Shown: positions 3,324-31,208, counted from the first letter of the stretch. The stretch is 32,000 nucleotides of DNA from an uncultured Gammaproteobacteria bacterium (GCA_964360965.1 CAYHYM010000004.1:30001-62000), one strand, 5' to 3'. The notes: generated by a model not told the origin, from the sequence alone. Made by a program: numbers and translations.

Positions 3324-3721
3324 TTAATCTATTTTAACAGAGTGCTCTTTTAGCCATTTGGAGATTTGTTCAACTGTTAAATTGCCATTGTCTACTCTAA
3401 CTGCAAACTCTACTTCTTCTTTATGTTGATTTATTAATTTATACTCATTTTTTTAAGGAATAAACCAGCTGAAGTTAAAGCGGCGCGTTTGTTGCCATCT
3501 ACAAAGGGATGATTTTTTAAAAGTGACTGTAGTAGGGCTGCAGCTTTGTCAAAAATGGAAATATATAAATATTCGCCTCCAAATGTAGCTTGTGGTCTAG
3601 CTACCGCTGATTCTACCAAACCCATGTCCCTGGTTCCTAAAGAACCGCCAAATCTTTTTACCATTTGATCGTGAATAAATAGAACCTGTTCTATTGTGAG
3701 AAAAATAATTTTTGTTTTCAC
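3324..3721 (-). pseudogene. doc: Doc (Fic-fold) toxin interrupted by a 1-nt frameshift in an A7 run
   Basis: ORF 3434..3721 carries the Fic/Doc motif HPFVDGNKRAA and stops at ...LFLKKMSIN*. The -1 frame continues as NEYKLINQHKEEVEFAVRVDNGNLTVEQISKWLKEHSVKID* down to 3324, a typical Doc C-terminus. The switch point is the T7 run on the + strand at 3448-3454. Confidence 0.75.
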
Positions 3722-4021: not shown

Positions 4022-4897
4022 GTGATTACTAAATCAAAACAGGAATATATTAAAAATGCTATTTATCTTTCCTATACTTCTTTAAATGATTTTTTGAAGT
4101 GTCCCGGGAGCTATTATTTAAAAAACATCTACAGAGATCCCAAAACCGGCTTTAGGATGCAGATTGCCTCACCTTATCTTTCTTTAGGTTCAACAGTCCA
4201 TGATGCTATAAAGTGGCATATAGAAATGGCAGGCCCGCTTCGACTCGCGTCGAGCGAGGCGAGACAGGTAACATATGAACAATTGGAGGGAAAATTTAGA
4301 AATCTATGGCTAAAATATACCGGTAAAAGAGGGGGTTTCTCCACCAAAGAAGATGAAGCAAGTTTTGGTAAGCGCGGCCTGTTAATGTTGGAGAATTTTT
4401 TTAGAAATGCCAAAAACTTGGAAGATAAACATCACAGTATAGAATTTCCTAAATACCCATTATTGGATAATGTAATTTTAATGGGGAATTTTGACTTTAT
4501 TGGGGAAAAAGAGGATCAGACCTTACATGTTGTGGATTTTAAAACCGGAGCAAATGATGAAAAAGATCCAATTCAGCTTTATATTTATGCCATTTTGGCA
4601 GAGGCTAATTTGGAAAAATCAGTTTCTTCAGCTTCATTTTGGTATTTGGACAGGGAAGATAAACCGCGTGATATAGTTTTAGATCCGCTGGAACCAAAAC
4701 TGGAATGGTTAAAAGAAAAAGCCACAGAGTTAAAAAAGGCAATTGGGGAGGGAATGTGGGTTTGTCCTTCGACTCGCTCCGCTCGCTCAGGATTATGTAG
4801 AGATTGTAGAGACTATCATGCCATTTTGGATGGAAAAGGTGAATTTCAATTTACTGATTATAGATACAAGAAAGATGTTTATTACCTTCCCAAATAG
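4022..4897 (+). CDS. PD-(D/E)XK nuclease, RecB/Cas4-like, with a Cys cluster
   Basis: GNFDFIG...HVVDFKTG (D...DxK) and QLYIYAIL (QxxxY) motifs. One N-terminal Cys (FLKCPG) plus C-terminal C-x10-C-x2-C. GTG start. Two GC-rich in-frame inserts. Confidence 0.7.
   Translation: MITKSKQEYIKNAIYLSYTSLNDFLKCPGSYYLKNIYRDPKTGFRMQIASPYLSLGSTVHDAIKWHIEMAGPLRLASSEARQVTYEQLEGKFRNLWLKYTGKRGGFSTKEDEASFGKRGLLMLENFFRNAKNLEDKHHSIEFPKYPLLDNVILMGNFDFIGEKEDQTLHVVDFKTGANDEKDPIQLYIYAILAEANLEKSVSSASFWYLDREDKPRDIVLDPLEPKLEWLKEKATELKKAIGEGMWVCPSTRSARSGLCRDCRDYHAILDGKGEFQFTDYRYKKDVYYLPK
4229..4267. repeat. GC-rich repeat fragment in frame in the nuclease gene
   Basis: ggcccgCTTCGACtcgcGTCGAGcgaggcgagacagg encodes GPLRLASSEARQ. 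Contains the CTTCGAC core shared with the other elements. Confidence 0.6.
4766..4792. repeat. GC-rich repeat fragment (CCTTCGAC...GCTCAGG type) in frame in the nuclease gene
   Basis: CCTTCGACtcgctccgctcGCTCAGGa encodes PSTRSARSG, between the first and second C-terminal cysteines. Confidence 0.65.
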
Positions 4898-4918
4898 TGG
4901 CTAGACTTCATGAGTAGT

Positions 4919-5350
4919 TTAACCTGTTTTTTTAGAATCTGGGATTATGACTGAAATAACAGGTTTTTGATCTAACAATTCTACCACAAAAAGCCCATGC
5001 AAAAGAGTGGCTGTTTTAAGCACTTGCTCAAGAGGGACTCCTGTTTCTTTGGCAATTTGTTCAGCAGGTGCGCTCCAATGATGATCTTTTAAAGAGCGGG
5101 TAAAAGCTCCCAAGGGCTGGTTTTTGTAAGCTGCCATTCTGGTAAGAAAAGCCAGAGGTTCTGCCAGTTCACTAAATGGCTTGGGGGCACAAGGTGTATC
5201 AGGTATGGGTACTTTAGTTAGATCAACAGGAACTGTTAATTGCTCAACAAGCATCATTTCTACTGTAGATCTATTTTCCAAGCTTGTCAAAAAAGCTGTT
5301 TGGTTAAGGTGAACTAGCCTCAAAAAACGTGAATTAATACCGCAAAACAC
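4919..5350 (-). CDS. Hypothetical protein; start uncertain (GTG at 5350, or the ATG pair about 31 codons in)
   Basis: ORF downstream of the hydrolase gene on the same strand. The C-terminal half looks helix-turn-helix-like (weak). Confidence 0.4.
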   Translation of the reverse strand: MFCGINSRFLRLVHLNQTAFLTSLENRSTVEMMLVEQLTVPVDLTKVPIPDTPCAPKPFSELAEPLAFLTRMAAYKNQPLGAFTRSLKDHHWSAPAEQIAKETGVPLEQVLKTATLLHGLFVVELLDQKPVISVIIPDSKKTG

Positions 5351-5387
5351 CTTAAATTCACGCTAAATTGACAAAAGTAAGTGAATT

Positions 5388-6221
5388 TCAGCTAAGTTGA
5401 TGGACCATGTCTTCTACCATTTCTCTAACTCTTGCTTGCTGAGGATAAGTTGAATCTTTATCTGAGACTGCTTTATCGCTTGTTAAAGCTACAAAGCTGT
5501 GTTCAATATATCTACGGTCTATAGATTGCAGATAACCTGCTTGATGGCAATAACTAAATCCATCTTGGGTAATATTACCATCTTTATGCCTAACAGTAAC
5601 CTCTTGACCACTTGCTGTAGCAGTTTTTCTAGTAGGGATCCATCTTAAAAACTTTTGGCCCAGATAATTATCTCTAACTAAAAAGCCTTTCCTAAACTCA
5701 TATAAAAATTGGCCTACATTTTGAGCTGTTGTTTCATTTAGTGTGCCTGATTCAAGATTTAAGATAGTAGTATCATGAAGATGCCAATTGGATAAAACAT
5801 CCTGTATTCTATTTCTACCTGCTACATCCGCTACCTTGGCAATTGCTACGTTATCAGAAAATTGAATAGAGTATCTTAGGAGATCTTCTAAAGTCTTTGT
5901 TGGCAGCATGTCCCTTCTAACAGCTTTGGACATAGCCCAGAGAGGAAGAAATTCTACTTTAAGTCTTCCAGTACCATGCATATTTTCCTGATACTCGTAA
6001 GGGGTAATATGATATCTTTGTTGTAAATCAAGCACCTCATCTTCTACTATTTTTAGAGCTACAGCCACTATAAAAAGTTTACCCAAAGAAGCAGCAGGTT
6101 GTTTCTCATGAGAATTGTATTCAGTAACTACTTGGTCAGTTTTTAAATTCTGTTGGAAGAAAGCAGTATGTAACTGACCATAAGTTTGTATACCACTTGC
6201 TTCTTTAATTGAGCCTGTCAT
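5388..6221 (-). CDS. Serine hydrolase with a class A beta-lactamase-like fold and no signal peptide
   Basis: SxxK (ASLGK), SDN (QFSDNVAIAKV) and a KTG-like HKDG motif occur in the expected order. Confidence 0.55.
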   Translation of the reverse strand: MTGSIKEASGIQTYGQLHTAFFQQNLKTDQVVTEYNSHEKQPAASLGKLFIVAVALKIVEDEVLDLQQRYHITPYEYQENMHGTGRLKVEFLPLWAMSKAVRRDMLPTKTLEDLLRYSIQFSDNVAIAKVADVAGRNRIQDVLSNWHLHDTTILNLESGTLNETTAQNVGQFLYEFRKGFLVRDNYLGQKFLRWIPTRKTATASGQEVTVRHKDGNITQDGFSYCHQAGYLQSIDRRYIEHSFVALTSDKAVSDKDSTYPQQARVREMVEDMVHQLS

Positions 6222-6286
6222 GGTTGGATTGTATCATAAAAGTTTAACTTCTGCTAAATTGTTATATTTGTGGAAGCCTACCTGTA

Positions 6287-6727
6287 TTATTCTCCGGCTA
6301 ATTTAAAGCCCGGCTTAGGGTACCAATCATCAAAAGAAAATATCAAATTTGTTTCAAACTTATTGGCAGTTGCAGCCACAATTGCGTCAAAAATAGTATT
6401 TTGCTTAGATTGAGACCTTGTTTCAAAAATAATCGCTGCCTTAGTTTGAATTTCTAAGTTTACGTACTCCACAGTAAAAGCTCCTGCCAGATATTGTTTA
6501 TTTATTAATTTTGCTTTATCAGGTAGGTTTTTAGCACGAGATAAGGCTGTAATTGTTTCCAGAATAGCAGTATTAGGATAAATTACTTGAAATCTTTTTA
6601 AGTTGAGCCACTGACTGATTCTCTTTGCTTTTTGGTGATTAGCATCTTGCTTATCTGCTAAAGCTATTAAGGAATCCGCATCTCCTATAATAATATTGTT
6701 CACTTTTGTCTTTTCTCTCCACCCCAA
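6287..6727 (-). CDS. PIN-domain toxin (VapC-like)
   Basis: N-terminal IIIGDADSLIAL and C-terminal IFDAIVAATANKFETNLIFSFDDWY are typical PIN acidic motifs. Overlaps the upstream RHH gene. Confidence 0.7.
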   Translation of the reverse strand: MGWREKTKVNNIIIGDADSLIALADKQDANHQKAKRISQWLNLKRFQVIYPNTAILETITALSRAKNLPDKAKLINKQYLAGAFTVEYVNLEIQTKAAIIFETRSQSKQNTIFDAIVAATANKFETNLIFSFDDWYPKPGFKLAGE

Positions 6728-6963
6728 GCGTAGTAGTCGTGATTTATAGATACATCCGTAGGAGAACCTTGTTGGCTGGGCATTTGTTCTGCCATCTTAG
6801 CCAGATCAAGTAAAGCCTGGGCATTGGATTTAGGGTGATTAATCTCCAAGCCCTTACTCAGGGCCTCTCTTATAATTTCAGCTTCAGCCTTATTCTTATC
6901 TTGAGCTATTAAGCTAATTCTTCTTCTGGTATCATCCGGGATGTGAACACTGATTCTTTGCAT
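6700..6963 (-). CDS. Ribbon-helix-helix (CopG-type) antitoxin
   Basis: MQRISVHIPDDTRRRISLIAQDKNKAEAEIIREALSKGL is an RHH signature. The start is placed at the ATG at 6963 because the -10 box lies inside the longer ORF-track call. Confidence 0.7.
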   Translation of the reverse strand: MQRISVHIPDDTRRRISLIAQDKNKAEAEIIREALSKGLEINHPKSNAQALLDLAKMAEQMPSQQGSPTDVSINHDYYAWGGEKRQK

Positions 6964-6972
6964 ATGTATTAC

Positions 6973-7001
6973 ATCATACATCATACAAACAGGTTTGTCA
7001 A
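6973..7001 (-). promoter_or_regulatory. Promoter TTGACA-17-TATGAT for the RHH/PIN operon
   Basis: Minus strand: TTGACA (7001-6996), 17-nt spacer, TATGAT (6978-6973). The ATG lies 9 nt downstream. Confidence 0.55.
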
Positions 7002-7201
7002 GTGCCCAACTTAACTTCAGCTAAAGTGTTGTGTTTATGAAATCCATTAGAGGGGATCGACTCAAATAGCTTAATCGACGATATCCGTATTGGATTAAAA
7101 GGCATGGCCATAAGTTTTTCCATTTCCACTTCTAATTTTTGATCTACTTTTAAATGGTTGTTGAGCTTGGAAATATTGAAATCTTCACTTTTGATAAAGA
7201 C
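6998..7201 (-). pseudogene. Relic 3' end of a thpR paralogue (67 in-frame codons, no start)
   Basis: Translates to ...FNISKLNNHLKVDQKLEVEMEKLMAMPFNPIRISSIKLFESIPSNGFHKHNTLAEVKLGT*, against the ThpR C-terminus HITIAKLNNHLKVDQKLEVEMEKLMAMPFNPIKISSIKLFESVPQEGFHKHNTLAEVKLV*. Positions 7092-7170 are identical to 12687-12765. Confidence 0.85.
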
Positions 7202-7223
7202 TTAAAAAAGTTAAGGTAAAAAT

Positions 7224-7307
7224 TACCAGGCTATTTTAGAGGGGAAAGGTGAGTTTCAGTTTACAGACCACCGCTACAAAAAAGATATTTATTTCTTGAA
7301 ACGTTAA
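7224..7307 (+). pseudogene. Relic 3' end of a PD-(D/E)XK nuclease paralogue
   Basis: YQAILEGKGEFQFTDHRYKKDIYFLKR*, against YHAILDGKGEFQFTDYRYKKDVYYLPK* at 4814-4897. Confidence 0.8.
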
Positions 7308-8845
7308 TAAATAGGCTCGAGGTCTTTTTCTACAACTTTTTCTATTAAAGTTTGTCCAGGGAAGATATAAATAAGTCTGATTTTGCCTGAACCGACCTTG
7401 TTCAGTTCGTCAATAATAGTTGTAACTTTACTTGACTTAATATCAGTAAAAGGTTTGGCGACGGAATGGTATCTGCTGATAAAACCTTCTAGTTCGGAAG
7501 CTGCCAGAATCACCACTACATTTTTATCCAGAAGTGTGGTCATTTCGCCTTTAAGCTTACCTTGTTCTCGTAATAGGTTTTCAATTACTTGATAAAATTG
7601 GTTAAAATCTTGGGTGTTTGATTTACAGTTAATAATAAACTGTTGGACCTTTTCTTGTGTCTCAGAATTTACTGCGATAGACCCCTCTAGGATGTGACCT
7701 TCAAAGGCTGAAGTACTACTGTTGTAGACAGAAGGTAACCCAAGGAGAATAGTATGTGCTACCTCAATTTGGTGTTCCGCAAGCTCTGCTAACACGCTTC
7801 TTACTGCTTGTTTTGGGTCAATATAGTCAATTCCAGGTTCTTGTTCTAGTAATTTGCCAACGCCTCCGTGCATAGCGGTGGAGCTAAAAGTGATTATTGG
7901 GGGTATTCTTCTCTCCCTAGGTAGTGCTTTCGCGCGAGCCATTAATTCAGGCATATGAGCTTTTAAACTTTGGCCATATAAATTAGTGTCAATTGAGCCT
8001 GATAGTTTTGGATCAGAGATCGGATAAATCTCAGGAAACGAGCGATCGCCAAAATAGTTCTTCCCCAAGGCTGTAATTAGAGAGTTCATCAGGGCTTCGG
8101 TGAAATGGGCAGTATCACGACCGCTATCTCCACCAACAACAATAATTGGTCTTCTAGCAATCACTCTTGTTTCTTCTGGTTTACTAATATCCGGAGTAAT
8201 GGTTTGTATTGGTAGTCTTTGAATACCCTTCAGGTAGCGTCTAATATCAAATCCAACGTAAAATCTAGGGTCTCCTGAAGAAGAAAATACTGTATCCTCA
8301 TAAGGATAATCTGCTCCAGTAATTAGGTCACGATCAAAAAAATGCCTTATGGGAATATCAGTTTGGGTAAATGGGTTAACGGTGCCATACTCAAGACCTA
8401 GCTTGGTCACATCAGCACGCTTTAGATCAGACTCACTAACATCTAAGTGCTGGGCCAATTTGGTAAAGTCTAGCTCTCGATCAGCTCTGGTATGAGTTAT
8501 AACTAGGGGATAACCAGGAGCTGTTAGGGCATTAGATCTCATAATTCGCCATAGTTCTACTCCTTGCTCTCCCTCGAAAATCGCAGCCGCAGCATTTTCT
8601 CTTACAGATCTGGGACGGCCTTGATTTTTACCAAAAAAATAATGAACTCCGTATTCAAAACGCAAAAGTGGCGGGACTGGAGTTTCTGTATATATCTCAT
8701 CTCTAATCTCTGCCGGGACATCAAAAATGGTCAGGCAAAGTGAATCAAAATGGCTGGCGATTTGAGCCAGTCTTTCCACCACAGGATCGCTTTCTTCAAG
8801 GCCAAGTTGCTTTGGGTTAAATCCAACCTGTAATAATTGTTCCAT
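7304..8845 (-). CDS. Fusion protein: N-terminal YbaK/ProX-like aminoacyl-tRNA deacylase fold plus C-terminal Asp/Glu-racemase-like fold lacking both catalytic Cys
   Basis: N-terminal half: PLVITHTRADRELDFTKLAQHLDV...LGLEYGTVNPF...FSSSGDPRFYVGF follows the YbaK block pattern. C-terminal half: IIVVGGDSGRDTA, IITFSSTAMHGG (in place of CNTAH) and VVILAASELEG (in place of GCTE) follow the Asp/Glu racemase blocks. Confidence 0.55.
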   Translation of the reverse strand: MEQLLQVGFNPKQLGLEESDPVVERLAQIASHFDSLCLTIFDVPAEIRDEIYTETPVPPLLRFEYGVHYFFGKNQGRPRSVRENAAAAIFEGEQGVELWRIMRSNALTAPGYPLVITHTRADRELDFTKLAQHLDVSESDLKRADVTKLGLEYGTVNPFTQTDIPIRHFFDRDLITGADYPYEDTVFSSSGDPRFYVGFDIRRYLKGIQRLPIQTITPDISKPEETRVIARRPIIVVGGDSGRDTAHFTEALMNSLITALGKNYFGDRSFPEIYPISDPKLSGSIDTNLYGQSLKAHMPELMARAKALPRERRIPPIITFSSTAMHGGVGKLLEQEPGIDYIDPKQAVRSVLAELAEHQIEVAHTILLGLPSVYNSSTSAFEGHILEGSIAVNSETQEKVQQFIINCKSNTQDFNQFYQVIENLLREQGKLKGEMTTLLDKNVVVILAASELEGFISRYHSVAKPFTDIKSSKVTTIIDELNKVGSGKIRLIYIFPGQTLIEKVVEKDLEPIY

Positions 8846-8874
8846 ATATCTATTATCTATGTGATAGAGCAGGT

Positions 8875-8903
8875 ATTATACACTATAAGGCTTATTATGT
8901 CAA
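8875..8903 (-). promoter_or_regulatory. Perfect consensus promoter TTGACA-17-TATAAT for the 513-aa gene
   Basis: Minus strand: TTGACA (8903-8898), 17-nt spacer, TATAAT (8880-8875). Leader of about 29 nt to the ATG at 8845. Confidence 0.6.
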
Positions 8904-8925
8904 AATGATTAAACTAAGGATTTTT

Positions 8926-8957
8926 GTGTTTTTAAAACACTTGTTGACATATTGTCA
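8926..8957. promoter_or_regulatory. Two adjacent palindromes (candidate operators) overlapping the glutaminase -35 box
   Basis: GTGTTTT-t-AAAACAC (8926-8940) and TGACA-tat-TGTCA (8945-8957). Confidence 0.4.
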
Positions 8958-8974
8958 TACAGATGTGTTATACT
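8944..8974 (+). promoter_or_regulatory. Promoter for the glutaminase operon, apparently leaderless
   Basis: TTGACA (8944-8949), 19-nt spacer containing TGt, then TATACT (8969-8974). The ATG at 8981 is 6 nt downstream. No SD. Confidence 0.5.
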
Positions 8975-8980
8975 TAAGTT

Positions 8981-10711
8981 ATGGCATTAAAAAGAACTAC
9001 CCTAAGGATAGATGAAGACTTAAAAAAAGATACTCAACAGCGAGCCTTAGAGGAGAATACCACTCAACAAGAAATTCTCAATAGAGCTTTAAAGAAATAT
9101 TTAAGAACTGAGGTTCAGAAAGAGCTTGCTAGGGAAACAGTGGCCGAGCCACAGGAAGTAACTACAAAAAAGGCTAGTTCGAGTAAACCAGCAGATGTAA
9201 TTGATTTGATATTTAGCTCACTGGATATCGAAGCCAGGGGTTTTATTAAAAAGGGAGATTTGATAGATGCCCTTAATTTTAGAGGAATTCTAGAGGATGA
9301 CATTAGGATTAAAAATGTCATGGAGGCTTTGAGTAAAACTAATAAAGACGATGATATCCCCCCCCAAACCTTCCGCAGGATTGTTGGGCCGTACATTACA
9401 TTAATTGAAAAAGCCCTGACTGGTAGTCTGGTTATCCCCGATTTTAAGAATTTCTGTAGTTTTATTACTAATCTTTATAATCGCACAATTCAAAACAAAG
9501 ATGGCGAGGTTTCAGATTACATACCTGAGCTAAAAGGAGTTGACCCAAATAACTATGCTATTTCCATTTGTACTATAGACGGACAGAGATTTAATTTGGG
9601 AGATTACAATACTCCCTATCTAGCCCAATCTACTGCCAAACCCATAAATTATTGTCTGGCCTTAGAAGAGCACGGCGAAGAAGTAGTTCATAAAAAGATT
9701 GGCAGAGAACCTTTAGGCAAAGGTTTAAATCAGTTGACTCTAAACAGTCAAGGATTGCCGCATAATCCTTTAAATGGTACAGGAGCAATTATGTCGGCCT
9801 CCTTGATTGGCCAAGAACTTTCCCTGGAAGACCGTTTTGAACAGGCTTTAAAGAAATGGAAGTCGCTTTCCGGAGGAATTAATCCTGGATTTTCAAAATC
9901 AGCTTACGATTCAGCTAAACATGTTGCGGATAAAGATCTGGCGCTAGCTTATTTTATGAGATTGAATCAGTTGTTTTCCAAAGGATCAAATTTAGAAGAA
10001 TATTTGGACTTTCTGTTTAAATGCTTATCTATTGAAACTACCACTGAAGCTCAAGCAATTATTGCTGCCACTTTGGCAAACGCCGGAGTTTGTCCGACCA
10101 ATGGGGAAGCCGTGTTAAAAATGGAGACTACAAAGAATTGTTTATCTTTGATGTATTCCTGCGGTATGGAAGATTACTCGTCTGAGTTTGCTTTTGCAAT
10201 AGGACTTCCTGCTAAAAGCGGTATTTCAGGATCGATTATGATAGTTGTGCCTAATGTGATGGGAATTGCGATTTATTCTCCTAGGGTTGATAGTAATGGC
10301 AATAGTGTTAAAGGATTAGATTTATGTAATAAATTAATCCAGAGATTTAATTTTCATAATTACGATAGCTTAACTAAAAAACTGGATAAAATTGATCCCA
10401 GGCTTTTGAAAAATGAAAATAAAATGAGGGGCGTGATGGCTGTTTGTACTGCTGCTTCTCAGGGAGATCTATATGAGATCCAAAGGTTAGAGGCCTCGGG
10501 GGTTGCTTTGGATGAAGGTGATTATGATGCCAGAACCGGCATACATCTGGCAGCCTCGGAAGGTCACGAAGAGGTAGTTCGCTATTTTATTGAAAGAAGA
10601 GTGGATATTAACCCTAAAGACCGTTGGGGTGGGACACCTTTAGCTGATGCCATGAGAGGTAACCACACTGCGGTAATTGAACTGTTGGAGAAAAATGGAG
10701 CCAGGCTATGA
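8981..10711 (+). CDS. glsA: Glutaminase with animal-GLS-like architecture (EF-hand-like helical domain + glutaminase + C-terminal ankyrin repeats), fused to an N-terminal RHH/VapB-like DNA-binding domain
   Basis: N-terminus KRTTLRIDEDLKKDTQQRALEENTTQQEILNRALKKYL (RHH). Core blocks VIPDFKNF, DYIPEL, CTIDGQR, QSTAKPINY (SxxK), HNPLNGTGAI, ATLANAGVCP, LSLMYSCGMEDYS, GLPAKSGISGS, VVPNVMG, NSVKG, FHNYD. C-terminus DYDARTGIHLAASEGHEEVVRYFI...DRWGGTPLADA (ANK). Confidence 0.85.
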   Translation: MALKRTTLRIDEDLKKDTQQRALEENTTQQEILNRALKKYLRTEVQKELARETVAEPQEVTTKKASSSKPADVIDLIFSSLDIEARGFIKKGDLIDALNFRGILEDDIRIKNVMEALSKTNKDDDIPPQTFRRIVGPYITLIEKALTGSLVIPDFKNFCSFITNLYNRTIQNKDGEVSDYIPELKGVDPNNYAISICTIDGQRFNLGDYNTPYLAQSTAKPINYCLALEEHGEEVVHKKIGREPLGKGLNQLTLNSQGLPHNPLNGTGAIMSASLIGQELSLEDRFEQALKKWKSLSGGINPGFSKSAYDSAKHVADKDLALAYFMRLNQLFSKGSNLEEYLDFLFKCLSIETTTEAQAIIAATLANAGVCPTNGEAVLKMETTKNCLSLMYSCGMEDYSSEFAFAIGLPAKSGISGSIMIVVPNVMGIAIYSPRVDSNGNSVKGLDLCNKLIQRFNFHNYDSLTKKLDKIDPRLLKNENKMRGVMAVCTAASQGDLYEIQRLEASGVALDEGDYDARTGIHLAASEGHEEVVRYFIERRVDINPKDRWGGTPLADAMRGNHTAVIELLEKNGARL

Positions 10712-11013
10712 AAAGTGATATTAAGACAACCGGAGTAATGGCGCTTGACTGGGCAGCGGCTCAGGGAGATTTGCACGAGATTCAAAGGTTAGTCGCATCC
10801 GGCGCAGATTTGAACGAAGGTGATTATGATGGGAGAACCGCAATACATCTGGCAGCCTCGGAAGGACAGGAAGAAATTGTCAGGTATTTAATTGCGAAAG
10901 GTGTAAATATTAATCCTAGGGATCGTTGGGGTGGGACACCTTTAGCTGATGCCATGAGAGGTAACCACACCAAAGTTATAGAGCTTTTGAAAAAACATAA
11001 TGCACAGAAATAA
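10708..11013 (+). CDS. Stand-alone ankyrin-repeat protein, a tandem duplicate of the glutaminase ANK tail
   Basis: DYDGRTAIHLAASEGQEEIVRYLI...DRWGGTPLADAMRGNHTKVIELL. ATGA overlap with the glutaminase gene. Identical DNA blocks at an offset of 302 bp. Confidence 0.8.
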   Translation: MKSDIKTTGVMALDWAAAQGDLHEIQRLVASGADLNEGDYDGRTAIHLAASEGQEEIVRYLIAKGVNINPRDRWGGTPLADAMRGNHTKVIELLKKHNAQK

Positions 11014-11024
11014 TCTAATTTCCT

Positions 11025-12125
11025 ATGAATGATAAACAAATTTCTCCTCCCAATAAAATAAAAGTTTATGTATTAAACACAGGTGGAACTCTGGGAATGG
11101 TGGGTAAACCGCTTCGTCCCGCTAAATCAGCTGCAGAGCTTTTAGAGGGAATTAATACTCCGCCTGAAGTGGAACTTATCATAGATGATTTTAAGTTTAG
11201 GCAGGATTCTACTAATATTTTGCATGCTGAAAGGCTAATGATGGCTAGGCAAATAGCCGAAAATTATAAAACCCATGATGCTTTTGTCATTATGCACGGG
11301 ACTGATTCTATGGCAGAAACAGCTGCAGCTTTTTGTATGTTCTTTAAATTATCTTTACAAAAGCCTTTAATTTTAGTTGGTGCTCAGATGTCTAAAGATG
11401 AGCCTGGTTCAGATGTACAACTGCAGTTATCAAATACTTTTAGAGTTGCCAGCGCCTTTCATAGATATAATATTGTGGGTGTTTATAATGTTTGTATCGG
11501 TGATATTTGGGATGGGTCAAGGCTTAGGAAAAGAGCAGAGTCAAATTTCATGGCTTTTTACACTCCAGGTCGTCATCCGGTGGCCAGAATTTGGCCTCAT
11601 ATTCACTTTGATGAAGGGTTAAGATATAAAGATCCTGTTTTGGCAGTTCAGGATTTAAAGATTGATGGTGTGCTAGAGCGTAAAGTAGCTACTTTTAAAG
11701 TATCAGCAGATACACCTCCATGGGTAGTAATGGATCAAGTTTTAAAAAATCGCCTCAAAGGGGTCATTTTAGAGTGTAAAGGTGCAGGAAATATTCCAAA
11801 TCGTGAATGGGAAGATTATGAAAACGGGACAACTTATTCATGGATTGATGTAATTGCGGCAGCAACTAAAGCTGGAATCCATGTGGGGATTATTTCACCT
11901 TTTGAAGATGGCAGAGTTATCCTAGGTCGTTATGAGCTGGGAGCAGAAGCACTTGAGGCAGGGGCAATTAGCTTAGAAAGTCTGACTCCAGATATGGCAG
12001 ATATTAAGTTTAGACAGGCTATTGCTATGTTTCCTACAGATAGAGAAAAAATTCAAGAATTTATTTCAACTAATATTATTGGAGAATTACTTACCGGAGC
12101 AGAAGATTCTGAGGAATTCATTTAG
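11025..12125 (+). CDS. ansA: Type I (cytosolic, AnsA/ASPG-like) L-asparaginase
   Basis: LNTGGTLGM (TGGTIG motif), IMHGTDSMAETA (HGTDTM motif), ILVGAQ, and the GAGN block in the C-terminal domain. Confidence 0.8.
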   Translation: MNDKQISPPNKIKVYVLNTGGTLGMVGKPLRPAKSAAELLEGINTPPEVELIIDDFKFRQDSTNILHAERLMMARQIAENYKTHDAFVIMHGTDSMAETAAAFCMFFKLSLQKPLILVGAQMSKDEPGSDVQLQLSNTFRVASAFHRYNIVGVYNVCIGDIWDGSRLRKRAESNFMAFYTPGRHPVARIWPHIHFDEGLRYKDPVLAVQDLKIDGVLERKVATFKVSADTPPWVVMDQVLKNRLKGVILECKGAGNIPNREWEDYENGTTYSWIDVIAAATKAGIHVGIISPFEDGRVILGRYELGAEALEAGAISLESLTPDMADIKFRQAIAMFPTDREKIQEFISTNIIGELLTGAEDSEEFI

Positions 12126-12135
12126 AGTAAGTTTT

Positions 12136-12180
12136 TTACCCAAGTTTAACTTCAGCCAGAATGTTATGTTTATGGAAGCC
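12136..12180 (-). pseudogene. Second relic of the thpR 3' end (last 14 codons plus stop)
   Basis: GFHKHNILAEVKLG*, against ThpR GFHKHNTLAEVKLV*. Confidence 0.7.
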
Positions 12181-12193
12181 ATTTTTGTAGAAA

Positions 12194-12313
12194 TCAAAGT
12201 AATTCTTTAAGTTCATCTATGGAAATTTCCACTGACTTTAAAATACTCATTAGAGTTTTTCTTTTGAGAGCTTTAATGACCTCCTTTGGCTTAACAACTG
12301 GAATTTTGGGCAT
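12194..12313 (-). pseudogene. hicA: HicA toxin remnant with an in-frame internal deletion (39 aa)
   Basis: MPKIPVVKPKEVIKALKRK|TLMSILKSVEISIDELKELL* keeps the HicA N- and C-termini but lacks the central GSH...H core. Its start abuts the hicB stop. Confidence 0.65.
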
Positions 12314-12577
12314 TTAAGAAAGAGTTTGCTGGATGGGTATATCAATTGTTGTCATAAAGCTGGGACCTTTTTCTTCAGGAACTATTTCATTATGTTTTTT
12401 TAAACTGGCAATATATACGCTGATAGCATCTTTAACCATCTCCACAGCTTCTTCCAAACTGTTACCTTCTGTGACACATCCTGGCAGAGCAGGTACAATC
12501 ACCACATACCCACCTTCTTCAGCTGGTTCAAAAATAGCAGTATATTTTAAGATTTTTTGAGAGATTTTCTTAGCCAT
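12314..12577 (-). CDS. hicB: HicB-family antitoxin
   Basis: YTAIFEPAEEGGYVVIVPALPGCVTEGNSLEEAVEMVKDAI is the HicB/UPF0150 signature. Confidence 0.8.
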   Translation of the reverse strand: MAKKISQKILKYTAIFEPAEEGGYVVIVPALPGCVTEGNSLEEAVEMVKDAISVYIASLKKHNEIVPEEKGPSFMTTIDIPIQQTLS

Positions 12578-12595
12578 GGAGTTATTATAGCATTT

Positions 12596-13162
12596 TCAAA
12601 CTAACTTTACTTCAGCTAAAGTATTATGTTTGTGGAAACCTTCTTGGGGAACTGATTCAAACAGTTTAATGGAGGAAATTTTAATGGGATTAAAAGGCAT
12701 GGCCATAAGTTTTTCCATTTCCACTTCTAATTTTTGATCTACTTTTAAATGGTTGTTGAGCTTGGCAATGGTGATATGAGGAATGAAACGACGTTCATCT
12801 GCTGTGAGCCTTAAAGTGGCCAAGCTATCTTTGATGCGCTCACGAATAAGTAAAATTTTATCTATATCCCCTTTGACTCCAATCCAAAGAACTTGAGGAT
12901 GGTGGAGGTTTGGAAATCCATCAATATAGGCAGGGGTAACTTCAAATGCAGGAATATTCGCTACAGCATTTCTGATAATTTCAACTAATTTATCCTTTAA
13001 TCCATCCGGTTGTTCTCCTAAAAAAGCTAAAGTCAGGTGAATTTTGTCTAAATCAGTAATTCTTACTTGAGTAATTAATGTATGCAATTTAGCTTGTATA
13101 GCTTGAAACTGCAATCTATTCTCTTTCGGAATTTCAAGTGCTATGAAAAACCTTATACCCAT
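12596..13162 (-). CDS. thpR: RNA 2',3'-cyclic phosphodiesterase (2H family, LigT/ThpR)
   Basis: Two HxTx motifs (HLTLAFLG and HITIAKL) at the expected spacing. Confidence 0.85.
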   Translation of the reverse strand: MGIRFFIALEIPKENRLQFQAIQAKLHTLITQVRITDLDKIHLTLAFLGEQPDGLKDKLVEIIRNAVANIPAFEVTPAYIDGFPNLHHPQVLWIGVKGDIDKILLIRERIKDSLATLRLTADERRFIPHITIAKLNNHLKVDQKLEVEMEKLMAMPFNPIKISSIKLFESVPQEGFHKHNTLAEVKLV

Positions 13163-30306: not shown

Positions 30307-31208
30307 GCCTTAATTATGCCAATTTTGCTGACGTTTTGCCACATCTGATCCACAATTTGATCAATTGGTTGATTTTTTATCCGGGCAATTTCTTTAACCA
30401 CTTCTAAAACATAGGCAGGTTCGTTTCTCTGTCCCCGTTTTGATTGTGGCGGTAAAAAAGGAGAATCAGTTTCGATGGTAATTTTTTCCAAAGGTAGGAT
30501 CCTGGCGGCTTCTTGTAGATATTCATTTTGGGGATAGGTGATATTGCCGGCAAAGGAAACCAGGAAATTAGTTTGCAGTATGCGGTTGGTAGTTGGTAGT
30601 AAGCCACTATAACAGTGGTAAATACCAAAGTAGTCTTTTGTCATCTTCAAGACTTCATCCCAGGCCGAAGGAGACGAAGTCTCCGCAGGTGGTGAGCCAC
30701 TCGGCACTGAGCTCACGGCCGAAGTGCCTGTCGAACCGCTACTTTTTGATCTGTCATCCCGGCAGTGAACAATTAAAGGAAGGTTAAGTTTTTTTGCTAA
30801 ATCAATTTGAGCTTGGAAAAGCTGCCTTTGTAGGTTTTTAACAATAAACACCTCCGAGGTGGGCTTTGACTCCCCGGAGGTGGAGAAAGCATAATCCAGG
30901 CCGCACTCTCCAACAGCTACTACTTTATCTACATTATCTAAATATATTTTTTCTAAACTTTTTATATCTTTTTGGATAGATATGTCTAGGTTATCTTTAT
31001 ACTTAACTGCCTCATGAGGATGAATGCCAATCGAAGAATAAAATTTTAATTTGTTAGAATTTAACTCTGCTGCGATTTTGGAAGTTTCAACATCTACACC
31101 AATATTAATGATAATGCCTACATCAGCATCTAAGGAATGTCTAATCACTTCGTCAAAGTCTTGTTTAAAACTATCCCAATATAAATGTGCATGAGTATCA
31201 ATTAACAT
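30303..31208 (-). CDS. tatD: TatD-family metal-dependent hydrolase/DNase with two in-frame GC-rich inserts
   Basis: MLIDTHAHL, GECGLDY, IVHCRD, IYHCYSG and ETDSPFL blocks. The extra segments are SSGSTGTSAVSSVPSGSPPAETSSPS and TSGESKPTSEV. Confidence 0.88.
   Translation of the reverse strand: MLIDTHAHLYWDSFKQDFDEVIRHSLDADVGIIINIGVDVETSKIAAELNSNKLKFYSSIGIHPHEAVKYKDNLDISIQKDIKSLEKIYLDNVDKVVAVGECGLDYAFSTSGESKPTSEVFIVKNLQRQLFQAQIDLAKKLNLPLIVHCRDDRSKSSGSTGTSAVSSVPSGSPPAETSSPSAWDEVLKMTKDYFGIYHCYSGLLPTTNRILQTNFLVSFAGNITYPQNEYLQEAARILPLEKITIETDSPFLPPQSKRGQRNEPAYVLEVVKEIARIKNQPIDQIVDQMWQNVSKIGIIKA
30663..30740. repeat. 78-nt GC-rich composite element in frame in tatD
   Basis: GGAGAC-gaa-GTCTCC (30670-30684), GTGAGC...GCTCAC (30692-30716), direct GGCCGAAG at 30663 and 30717, and CTGTCGAACCGCT shared with 17264-17273. 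Confidence 0.75.
30849..30883. repeat. 34-nt GC-rich hairpin element inside tatD, twin of 1702..1735
   Basis: CACCTCCGAGGTGGGCTTTGACTCCCCGGAGGTG matches the reverse complement of the tsaD copy at 33 of 34 positions. Confidence 0.85.

Follow-up and report, generated by a model that had tools for sequence, protein, structure and literature searches.

Kidney-type glutaminases (GLS/KGA and GLS2) and the prokaryotic "glutaminase A" enzymes have the domain order EF-hand_14, Glutaminase and ankyrin (ANK) repeats and share a catalytic Ser-x-x-Lys motif, and the cytosolic type-I L-asparaginases such as E. coli AnsA (subfamily TIGR00519) are built of two Pfam Asparaginase domains, N and C, with TGGT, HGTD and Lys motifs. 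The archaeal GatDE and bacterial GatCAB tRNA-dependent amidotransferases pair an asparaginase-like or amidase subunit that generates ammonia with a subunit that handles Asp/Glu-tRNA; the YbaK/ProXp proteins of the INS superfamily are free-standing trans-editing factors; the Asp/Glu racemases (P. horikoshii AspR, E. coli YgeA/EcL-DER, McyF) share a two-lobed fold; and PutA-type fusions are autoregulatory enzymes with an N-terminal ribbon-helix-helix (RHH) segment. Here we describe a four-gene block at 7304-12125 of a 32,000 nucleotide (nt) stretch of metagenomic DNA (CAYHYM010000004.1:30001-62000 of GCA_964360965.1, called "the window" below), in which a glutaminase-ankyrin-asparaginase operon stands divergent to a gene for a protein that joins a YbaK-like domain to a racemase-like one and whose family is accompanied by an asparaginase-family gene in every locus examined. 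The contig is deposited as that of an uncultured Gammaproteobacteria bacterium and comes from the Hainich groundwater metagenomes (0.1-µm filter); the closest named relative of its glutaminase is from a Candidatus Curtissbacteria genome. The four open reading frames, with their lengths in amino acids (aa), are:

7304-8845, minus strand: YbaK/ProX-like plus Asp/Glu-racemase-like fusion protein (513 aa)
8981-10711, plus strand: GLS-type glutaminase (576 aa)
10708-11013, plus strand: free-standing ankyrin protein (101 aa)
11025-12125, plus strand: type-I-like L-asparaginase (366 aa)

All four lie at exactly the coordinates given by the initial annotation, which had been made from the sequence of the window, and the junctions that it reported were recovered to the nucleotide: a divergent spacer of 135 bp (8846-8980) between the fusion and glutaminase genes, an ATGA shared by the glutaminase stop and the ankyrin start (junction sequence ...GCTATGAAA...) and a gap of 11 nt between the ankyrin and asparaginase genes. 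The three plus-strand genes are a tightly packed, conserved unit (the "trio" below).

The fusion family and its asparaginase partner

The open reading frames within 6 kb of a fusion gene were compared all against all in 12 non-redundant loci, and only two families are present in 12/12, the fusion itself and an asparaginase-family protein. The loci examined are from Patescibacteria and, for the broad fusion family, also from a Thermoanaerobaculia genome and other metagenome contigs; the metagenome scan for them used alignment A1, the 18-sequence alignment A2 being too divergent, and related fusions are annotated from Actinobacteria-type (Conexibacter, Acidimicrobiales) and Proteobacteria metagenome-assembled genomes. 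The conserved partner of the fusion family is thus a type-I asparaginase-family gene, and the conserved functional link is this pair, not an obligate four-gene unit. The partner takes the following forms, where the L numbers designate loci:

L004, L005 and L028: full-length and type-I-like, in one to three copies (358-505 aa)
L008/L016/L019, L017, L021 and L031: N-domain only (138-175 aa)
L007 and L022: tandem double with a degenerate first half (805-815 aa)
L025: fused to a STAND-type AAA_16 ATPase (743 aa)

The spacing between the two genes is often operon-like, with an overlap or 5-25 nt between them: they share an ATGA in L025 and are 5 nt apart in L007 and 25 nt apart in L008. The partner asparaginases keep the TGGT/HGTDT/Lys motifs. 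In the tandem doubles (L007 1402-3819 and L022 8608-11055) the catalytic Thr, Thr-Asp and Lys are gone from the first half, which reads SLGGVG, GGMDS and Asn at these places, and are kept in the second, and these proteins look like pseudoenzyme-enzyme fusions. Three of the loci (L007 581-1237, L022 6149-6805 and L031 1334-2005) also encode a ~220-aa protein with a C-terminal ACT-like domain, whose ACT_9/ACT_7 Pfam matches are just under the cut-off and which is a possible third component. Each of the enzyme families is known, and the pairing of fusion and asparaginase appears unreported: literature searches found no description of an asparaginase plus YbaK-racemase pair or of an RHH-glutaminase, and PADLOC-DB v2 models matched neither the fusion, the asparaginases nor the STAND-asparaginase (their sole match was of ankyrin repeats to PDC-M72A), in agreement with the remark in the initial annotation that the four-gene combination was unfamiliar as a described system.

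The surroundings of some fusion genes are of a defence or mobile type. In the Thermoanaerobaculia locus (L025 2698-8004) the genes for an HTH-AAA_35 protein and for the AAA_16 (STAND-type) ATPase with its full asparaginase immediately precede the asparaginase-fusion pair, and the joining of an NTPase to an asparaginase is unusual and hints at an asparaginase effector that is activated by a signal; in L028 (10406-16935) the genes that come after the pair are those for PycTM (a Pycsar-type effector domain) and NADAR, one like a Mur ligase, and a ThiF plus prokaryotic E2 pair, and these surroundings are defence-island-like; L005 has TIR and integrase genes and L004 a serine recombinase gene. Neighbours of this kind favour a conflict or starvation module, in which the asparaginase (with the glutaminase) would deplete Asn and Gln, or would deamidate or deacylate Asn/Gln-tRNA, and so arrest growth under phage attack or stress, the fusion being a sensor, regulator or second effector and the VapB-like RHH segment and the ankyrin protein being antitoxin- or inhibitor-like. 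The lack of any PADLOC model match speaks against such a module, as do the absence of the fusion from the IMG/VR viral contigs, the position of two fusion loci (L016 and L031) amid housekeeping translation genes, and the ACT-domain partners and widespread GLS-type glutaminases, which point to ordinary amino-acid metabolism. The PLSDB plasmids gave no fusion and only an ordinary racemase match, a literature search on asparaginase or YbaK in defence or conflict systems found nothing relevant, and we know of no amino-acid-depleting defence system. On balance we consider a conflict role unlikely, though it is the strongest rival to the account preferred below.

The fusion protein of the window was divided as follows:

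8171-8668, minus strand: YbaK/ProX-like (tRNA_edit fold) domain, aa ~60-225 (tRNA_edit match, fold matches and motif alignment)
7307-8158, minus strand: Asp/Glu-racemase-like domain, aa ~230-513 (Foldseek and alignments)

Its core family is rare, with 7 matches among 5.8e9 proteins, and a profile search of 1.8 billion representatives gave ~14 full-length core clusters at 50% identity and a broader set of 430-500-aa proteins, with ~150 clusters for the fusion family as a whole. The initial annotation had called the protein a YbaK-like plus racemase-like fusion. Pfam fails to support this on the window protein itself, where tRNA_edit (PF04073) is the only match (18.1 bits, cut-off 25.5) and Asp_Glu_race (PF01177) gives none, and a sequence-profile search of the PDB with the family returned nothing meaningful. 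The relatives P0146, P0147, P0149 and P0151 do pass the tRNA_edit cut-off, the distant relatives P0146 (33.1 bits) and P0156 (38.5 bits) pass that of Asp_Glu_race (31 bits), some members of the broad family pass both, and the automatic annotation of broad-family proteins at JGI reads [quoted passage not shown]. An AlphaFold model from a 108-sequence alignment has a mean predicted local distance difference test score (pLDDT) of 88.4 and a predicted template modelling (TM) score of 0.86; it superseded an earlier model from 7 sequences in which the N-terminal domain was poor (pLDDT 65). Foldseek matches the YbaK half of the model to 1dbx, 1wdv, 2dxa and 2z0k (probability 1.00, TM score on the target 0.66-0.75, root-mean-square deviation 2.9-5.1 Å) and the racemase half to 2zsk, 3ojc, 5ell (YgeA), 5xnk (McyF) and 1jfl (TM score on the target 0.64-0.75, and 0.69-0.75 for the first three; E 2e-7 to 1e-4). 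Because the model is confident and homology can be followed transitively through these relatives, both domain calls hold, and the two-domain reading is correct.

The YbaK-like domain has the fold of the free-standing editing factors, with the K-S/T, GxxxP and SGG-like motifs in register; the window protein shows "MRS" (R103), H118-x-R120, G154-T-V-N-P-F and SSGD, and the GxVxPF loop is kept. It differs from them in being fused to the racemase-like domain, in an N-terminal extension of ~60 aa, in the pairing of its family with an asparaginase in every locus examined, and in having Arg103 at the position of the catalytic lysine (in H. influenzae YbaK, we take this to be K46). Lys stands there in the other aligned relatives ("MKS" or "LKS"), and K at position 103 is at least 90% conserved in alignments A2 and A4, so that deacylase chemistry by the window protein is uncertain. 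The racemase-like domain likewise has the two-lobed fold of the Asp/Glu racemases, with GG(x)S and (S/C)xT-A-H-like motifs in register, and differs from them in helical insertions at aa 384-440, in the fusion to YbaK and in its catalytic positions. Aligned to what we take to be the YgeA sequence, with its pair Thr83/Cys197, the broad fusion family has Cys/Thr and the window's core family Ser/Ser, the first residue being Ser in most members and the second either Ser or Thr; the window protein has Ser322/Ser450 rather than Cys/Cys or Thr/Cys. With these serines in place of the catalytic pair, racemase activity of the window fusion is unlikely.

These residues bear directly on the idea that the module supplies D-Asp (or D-Glu) with proofreading, the asparaginase making L-Asp, the racemase domain converting it to D-Asp and the YbaK domain hydrolysing D-Asp-tRNA(Asp). 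AspRS can charge D-Asp; the Cys/Thr pair of the broad family is the reverse of the Thr/Cys found in E. coli YgeA, an active racemase; the best structural matches are to true aspartate racemases that have Asp or Glu bound; and the ever-present asparaginase neighbour would supply the substrate. The scheme suits the Cys/Thr family and not the window clade, which is Ser/Ser without cysteine and has Arg for the YbaK Lys; there is no D-Asp ligase or other D-Asp consumer nearby in the window, and to our knowledge no YbaK-family D-aminoacyl-tRNA deacylase has been described. For the window block we find D-Asp supply very unlikely.

The operon enzymes and the recurrence of the block

The domains of the glutaminase are:

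8981-9115, plus strand: probable RHH segment, aa 1-45 (sub-threshold profile matches)
9203-9439, plus strand: EF-hand_14, aa 75-153 (Pfam E 4.8e-12, 46.5 bits, cut-off 23.7)
9503-10363, plus strand: Glutaminase catalytic domain, aa 175-461 (Pfam PF04960, E 7e-89, 298.1 bits, cut-off 27; full-length, 1-286/286)
10451-10702, plus strand: ankyrin tail, aa 491-574 (Ank_2 40.5 bits, cut-off 27.3; Ank_4 43.1 bits, cut-off 22.7)

The protein thus has the domain order of the kidney-type enzymes, and its Ser-x-x-Lys motif is intact (S-T-A-K). It differs from GLS/KGA in the added N-terminal RHH-like segment of ~45 aa, which is confined to the five closest loci, and in that the second ankyrin module is a separate, translationally coupled gene. 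Of the RHH-EF-hand-glutaminase-ankyrin architecture first proposed for it, the last three parts are firm in Pfam and the RHH part is consistent and sub-threshold: the best match of the N-terminus is to VapB_antitoxin (18.8 bits, cut-off 23.4, E 0.0015), a point in favour of an antitoxin-like part in a conflict module, followed by RHH_1 (16.8 bits, cut-off 20.5, E 0.0067); a PDB search gave a weak match to MazE6 (E 0.55), and hhalign places the segment in register with the neighbouring RHH antitoxin (E 0.002, probability 13%). The EF-hand_14-Glutaminase-ankyrin order is common in prokaryotes (1204 matches), with holders that include the Candidate Phyla Radiation, DPANN (Aenigmarchaeota), Planctomycetota, myxobacteria (Nannocystis) and Margulisbacteria, so that the enzyme is not the animal-like oddity for which it could be taken. 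A review that cites Pasquali 2017 reports an early acquisition of ankyrin repeats in the evolution of glutaminases (PMC13142944).

The 366-aa protein has both Pfam Asparaginase domains over their cut-offs (N 115 bits, E 3.9e-33; C 50.8 bits, E 1.9e-13), and in an alignment to what we take to be the AnsA sequence its catalytic motifs TGGT, HGTDS and Lys are intact, which bears out the type I asparaginase call of the initial annotation. It differs from AnsA in being co-operonic with a glutaminase and an ankyrin protein and in its divergence, scoring 144.4 bits against the TIGR00519 cut-off of 260.5. The glutaminase falls just under the NCBIfam equivalog TIGR03814 "glutaminase A" (236.0 bits, cut-off 255.4), and the two enzymes are therefore divergent members of their families.

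The free-standing 101-aa protein is pure ankyrin (Pfam Ank_4, 4e-23). It is 70% identical in aa sequence to glutaminase residues 476-575, the two DNA segments lie in tandem and are 76% identical, and longer prokaryotic glutaminases (636-666 aa) have two tandem ankyrin modules each of which matches the free protein. Since it is paralogous to the glutaminase tail and longer homologues have two such modules, the free protein is the second ankyrin module of the glutaminase, split off or duplicated, and the ATGA overlap suggests that it is translationally coupled to that enzyme; its gene is conserved in L014 and L015. A "split ASPG", with the ankyrin protein belonging to the asparaginase, was considered and rejected on the ground of the same paralogy; animal ASPG has its own C-terminal ankyrin repeats on the asparaginase, and here they are in a separate upstream gene. 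The description "ankyrin-associated amidohydrolases" accordingly stands for the glutaminase and falls for the asparaginase.

The arrangement in the window recurs. In L023 (fusion P0002) and L024 (fusion P0007) a fusion gene is likewise divergent to an RHH-glutaminase gene; the L023 fusion is 55% identical to that of the window and its glutaminase 71% identical over the 41 aa available, and the corresponding values in L024 are 37% and 84%. Window and L024 DNA are 78% identical across the glutaminase and its promoter, and homology ends at 8877, within the spacer. The trio is found in L014 and L015, with 72-78% nt identity and asparaginase orthologues in both, each time without the fusion. In L014 (Curtissbacteria, GCA_016195765.1) gatC-gatA-gatB (4822-7960) are divergent to the trio, in the slot held by the fusion in the window; in L015 the trio is preceded by beta-lactamase-like and MraZ-like genes, and the fusion gene is an indel relative to that locus. 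The trio is thus a conserved unit. What stands divergent to it varies, and different alleles of one rare family have come to occupy this slot on at least three occasions. In a neighbour-joining tree, which is rough and has no support values, the GLS-linked fusions fall in two clades, each with asparaginase-linked sisters, which suggests that fusions docked to the trio are able to do without a dedicated asparaginase.

The presence of two further fusion alleles, 55% and 37% identical, in the same orientation to an RHH-glutaminase means that the window arrangement is not due to chance. In a contrary account the fusion would be an unrelated cassette that came to rest next to an ordinary operon of glutaminase and asparaginase because the site is a recombination hot spot; it draws on the trios without a fusion, on the indel relative to L015 and on the mosaic of repeated gene ends and toxin-antitoxin cassettes that makes up the region. 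The three divergent fusion alleles share their position by RHH-GLS, the spacer with both promoters is conserved, and the family otherwise adjoins an asparaginase in all 12 loci, so that a random landing beside one of few asparaginase genes is improbable; chance juxtaposition seems to us quite unlikely. The initial annotation had named genes that never co-occur elsewhere as the sign of such chance, and asked for a neighbourhood survey: the genes do co-occur elsewhere, the fusion with the RHH-glutaminase in L023 and L024 and with an asparaginase throughout its family, and, as L014 and L015 show, they are not one obligate unit of four. A slot that is hypervariable beside a conserved operon would, for its part, also suit a conflict module.

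The gatCAB genes of L014 raise the thought of a new tRNA-dependent amidotransferase akin to GatDE, in which Asp/Glu-tRNA held by the fusion would be amidated with ammonia from the asparaginase-like subunit. The fusion holds the slot of gatCAB, its two folds are ones that bind the aminoacyl-CCA end (YbaK) and Asp/Glu (racemase), and the asparaginase-family partners score second-best against GatD models. Those scores are far under the cut-off, however, and type-I asparaginase models score higher (the window asparaginase has 119 bits against GatD equivalog cut-offs of 310-324). Domain searches found no GatB or GatE domain in the window block, which also differs from GatDE and GatCAB in having no ATP-binding domain, and the minimal two-gene modules have no ATP-binding or kinase domain, whereas amidation requires activation of the carboxyl group. 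Because there is no ATP-binding component and type-I asparaginase models outscore GatD, we have downgraded this idea to extremely unlikely.

The divergent promoter region and the borders of the block

Three elements can be read in the 135 bp spacer:

8875-8903, minus strand: fusion promoter, sigma-70-type (TTGACA, 17-nt spacer, TATAAT; 12/12 consensus matches)
8896-8957, no strand: candidate shared operator, an inverted repeat plus a palindrome, of putative function
8944-8980, plus strand: glutaminase promoter (TTGACA ... TGnTATACT, an extended -10, TATAAT in relatives), as read from the sequence

A perfect 8-nt inverted repeat, TATGTCAA/TTGACATA (8896-8903/8944-8951), with arms 40 nt apart, makes up the two -35 boxes, which stand back to back, and a TGACA-N3-TGTCA palindrome (8945-8957) lies over the glutaminase -35. 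The fusion -10 element is conserved in L023 and L024, as is the symmetric promoter/operator layout, which is partly kept in L015 as well. The glutaminase ATG follows 6 nt (TAAGTT) after the -10 with no Shine-Dalgarno sequence (8969-8983), at a spacing that is the same in L015, L023 and L024; because the -10 ends so close to the ATG, the glutaminase mRNA is probably leaderless. Rfam found no riboswitch or other RNA family over 6800-12700. An RHH dimer-of-dimers formed by glutaminase N-termini could repress both promoters. The likeness to PutA-type proteins lies in a short N-terminal RHH-like segment, here sub-threshold, on a catabolic amino-acid enzyme beside a divergent promoter region with symmetric repeats; the PutA enzyme itself is unrelated to glutaminase, and DNA binding by the RHH-like segment of the window protein is a prediction.

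The initial annotation had placed the block between relic gene ends, and copies of LigT and PDDEXK_1 gene ends were indeed found on its flanks:

7008-7182, minus strand: relic of a LigT-like gene 3' end at the left block boundary (176 nt, 57 codons; 89% aa and 85% nt match to 12603-12777)
7218-7298, plus strand: relic of a PDDEXK_1 nuclease gene 3' end (27 codons; 74% match to the window's own gene and 81% to that of L015)
12142-12183, minus strand: short relic of the extreme LigT 3' end at the right block boundary (sequence match)
6240-6278: short copy of the LigT 3' end (sequence match)

The 3' end of the LigT-like (2H phosphoesterase) gene is present in four direct copies, of which only 12603-12777 belongs to an intact gene. 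Three cassettes (RHH-PIN, the four-gene block and HicB) lie between these copies, a layout that resembles the outcome of repeated insertion at a single hot spot, with the end of the target gene regenerated each time. The intact PDDEXK_1 gene (4022-4897) is 2.3 kb from its relic, which sits just downstream of the fusion gene, and in L015 a PDDEXK_1 gene is ~1.2 kb upstream of the glutaminase gene; read from the sequence, this implies that a rearrangement inserted 4735-7217. Base composition shows no anomaly, with a uniform G+C fraction of 0.36-0.42 across the region, and a compositional island was rejected on that ground. The sites at 3434-3721, 6287-6984 and 12314-12577 are dense in toxin-antitoxin genes, with Fic/Doc, RHH-PIN and HicB-like modules; the Fic/Doc toxin has a MazE-like antitoxin (annotated in L001), the RHH-PIN (VapBC-like) genes overlap, and the HicB-like antitoxin has no visible adjacent HicA. 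That the block lies amid such modules, between repeated gene-end relics, again favours the conflict alternative.

The rest of the window resembles an ordinary candidate-phyla chromosome, with genes for TsaD, GroEL, VanW and a solute-binding protein and many toxin-antitoxin genes. We note also a 45-nt inverted repeat of 91% identity between the TsaD gene (1695-1739) and an open reading frame near the opposite end of the window (30845-30889).

A proposed role for the block

The account that we tentatively prefer, and that we would place a little short of probable, is that the block is, in a Curtissbacteria-like candidate-phyla bacterium, an RHH-autoregulated operon for hydrolysis of the Gln and Asn amides, with the fusion as an accessory that binds Asp/Glu, may also bind a tRNA 3' end and would link amide hydrolysis to the aminoacyl-tRNA pool. 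Both -35 boxes are overlapped by the symmetric TGTCA/TGACA elements; the RHH-like glutaminase N-terminus would bind these and, by analogy with PutA, would co-regulate both transcription units. Glu and Asp, together with ammonia, would be the products of the two amidohydrolases. The racemase-like domain, given Ser/Ser in place of the catalytic pair, would bind Asp/Glu rather than racemise it, and the YbaK-like domain would bind an aminoacyl-adenosine end, most plausibly that of Asp/Asn/Glu/Gln-tRNA, so that the fusion, whether it deacylates or senses, would tie the Asn/Asp (Gln/Glu) pool to that of aminoacyl-tRNA. In lineages where the fusion is docked to the operon, the operon asparaginase would replace the dedicated partner. 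Of the earlier suggestion that the fusion senses or processes the Asp and Glu products, binding thus stays plausible and racemisation does not. The intact catalytic motifs, the conserved trio, the recurrent divergent arrangement, the pairing in all 12 loci, the folds of both fusion domains, the symmetric promoter region and the two clades of the tree count for this account, and so do two observations on other loci, the occurrence in the fusion's slot in L014 of gatCAB, another enzyme handling Asp/Glu-tRNA, and the third partner with an (amino-acid-binding) ACT domain in three loci.

Several points weigh on the other side. Arg103 stands at the YbaK lysine position and no cysteine at the racemase positions, and the window fusion may be catalytically dead in both domains; the RHH assignment is under the Pfam cut-offs; the trio occurs without the fusion in L014 and L015, the adjacency of gatCAB to it is a single case, and the tree behind the docking idea is a rough one. 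Several fusion loci lie amid defence-type or mobile genes (TIR, integrase, recombinase, STAND-asparaginase, PycTM, NADAR), and the toxin-antitoxin flanks of the block fit a conflict role as well as a metabolic one. Gene content and associations were observed directly, and every one of the biochemical steps is inferred.

A more speculative extension, which we hold to be rather unlikely, is that fusion and asparaginase make up an unrecognised two-component system acting on tRNA-esterified amino acids, such as one that deamidates or deacylates Asn/Gln- or Asp/Glu-tRNA, either for quality control of indirect aminoacylation or as a depleting growth-arrest or defence effector, that has been plugged into the RHH-controlled operon in Curtissbacteria-like genomes.

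Whichever of these applies, the strict pairing of fusion and asparaginase points to unfamiliar biochemistry where amide-nitrogen metabolism meets the handling of aminoacyl-tRNA. A fusion that acts on tRNA would form a new branch of the YbaK/ProXp editing superfamily, a module that serves as a starvation effector would represent a novel type of defence logic, and the RHH-glutaminase would be a new enzyme-repressor fusion. This meeting point is especially relevant to ultra-small bacteria, which are expected to scavenge amino acids and to rely on GatCAB.

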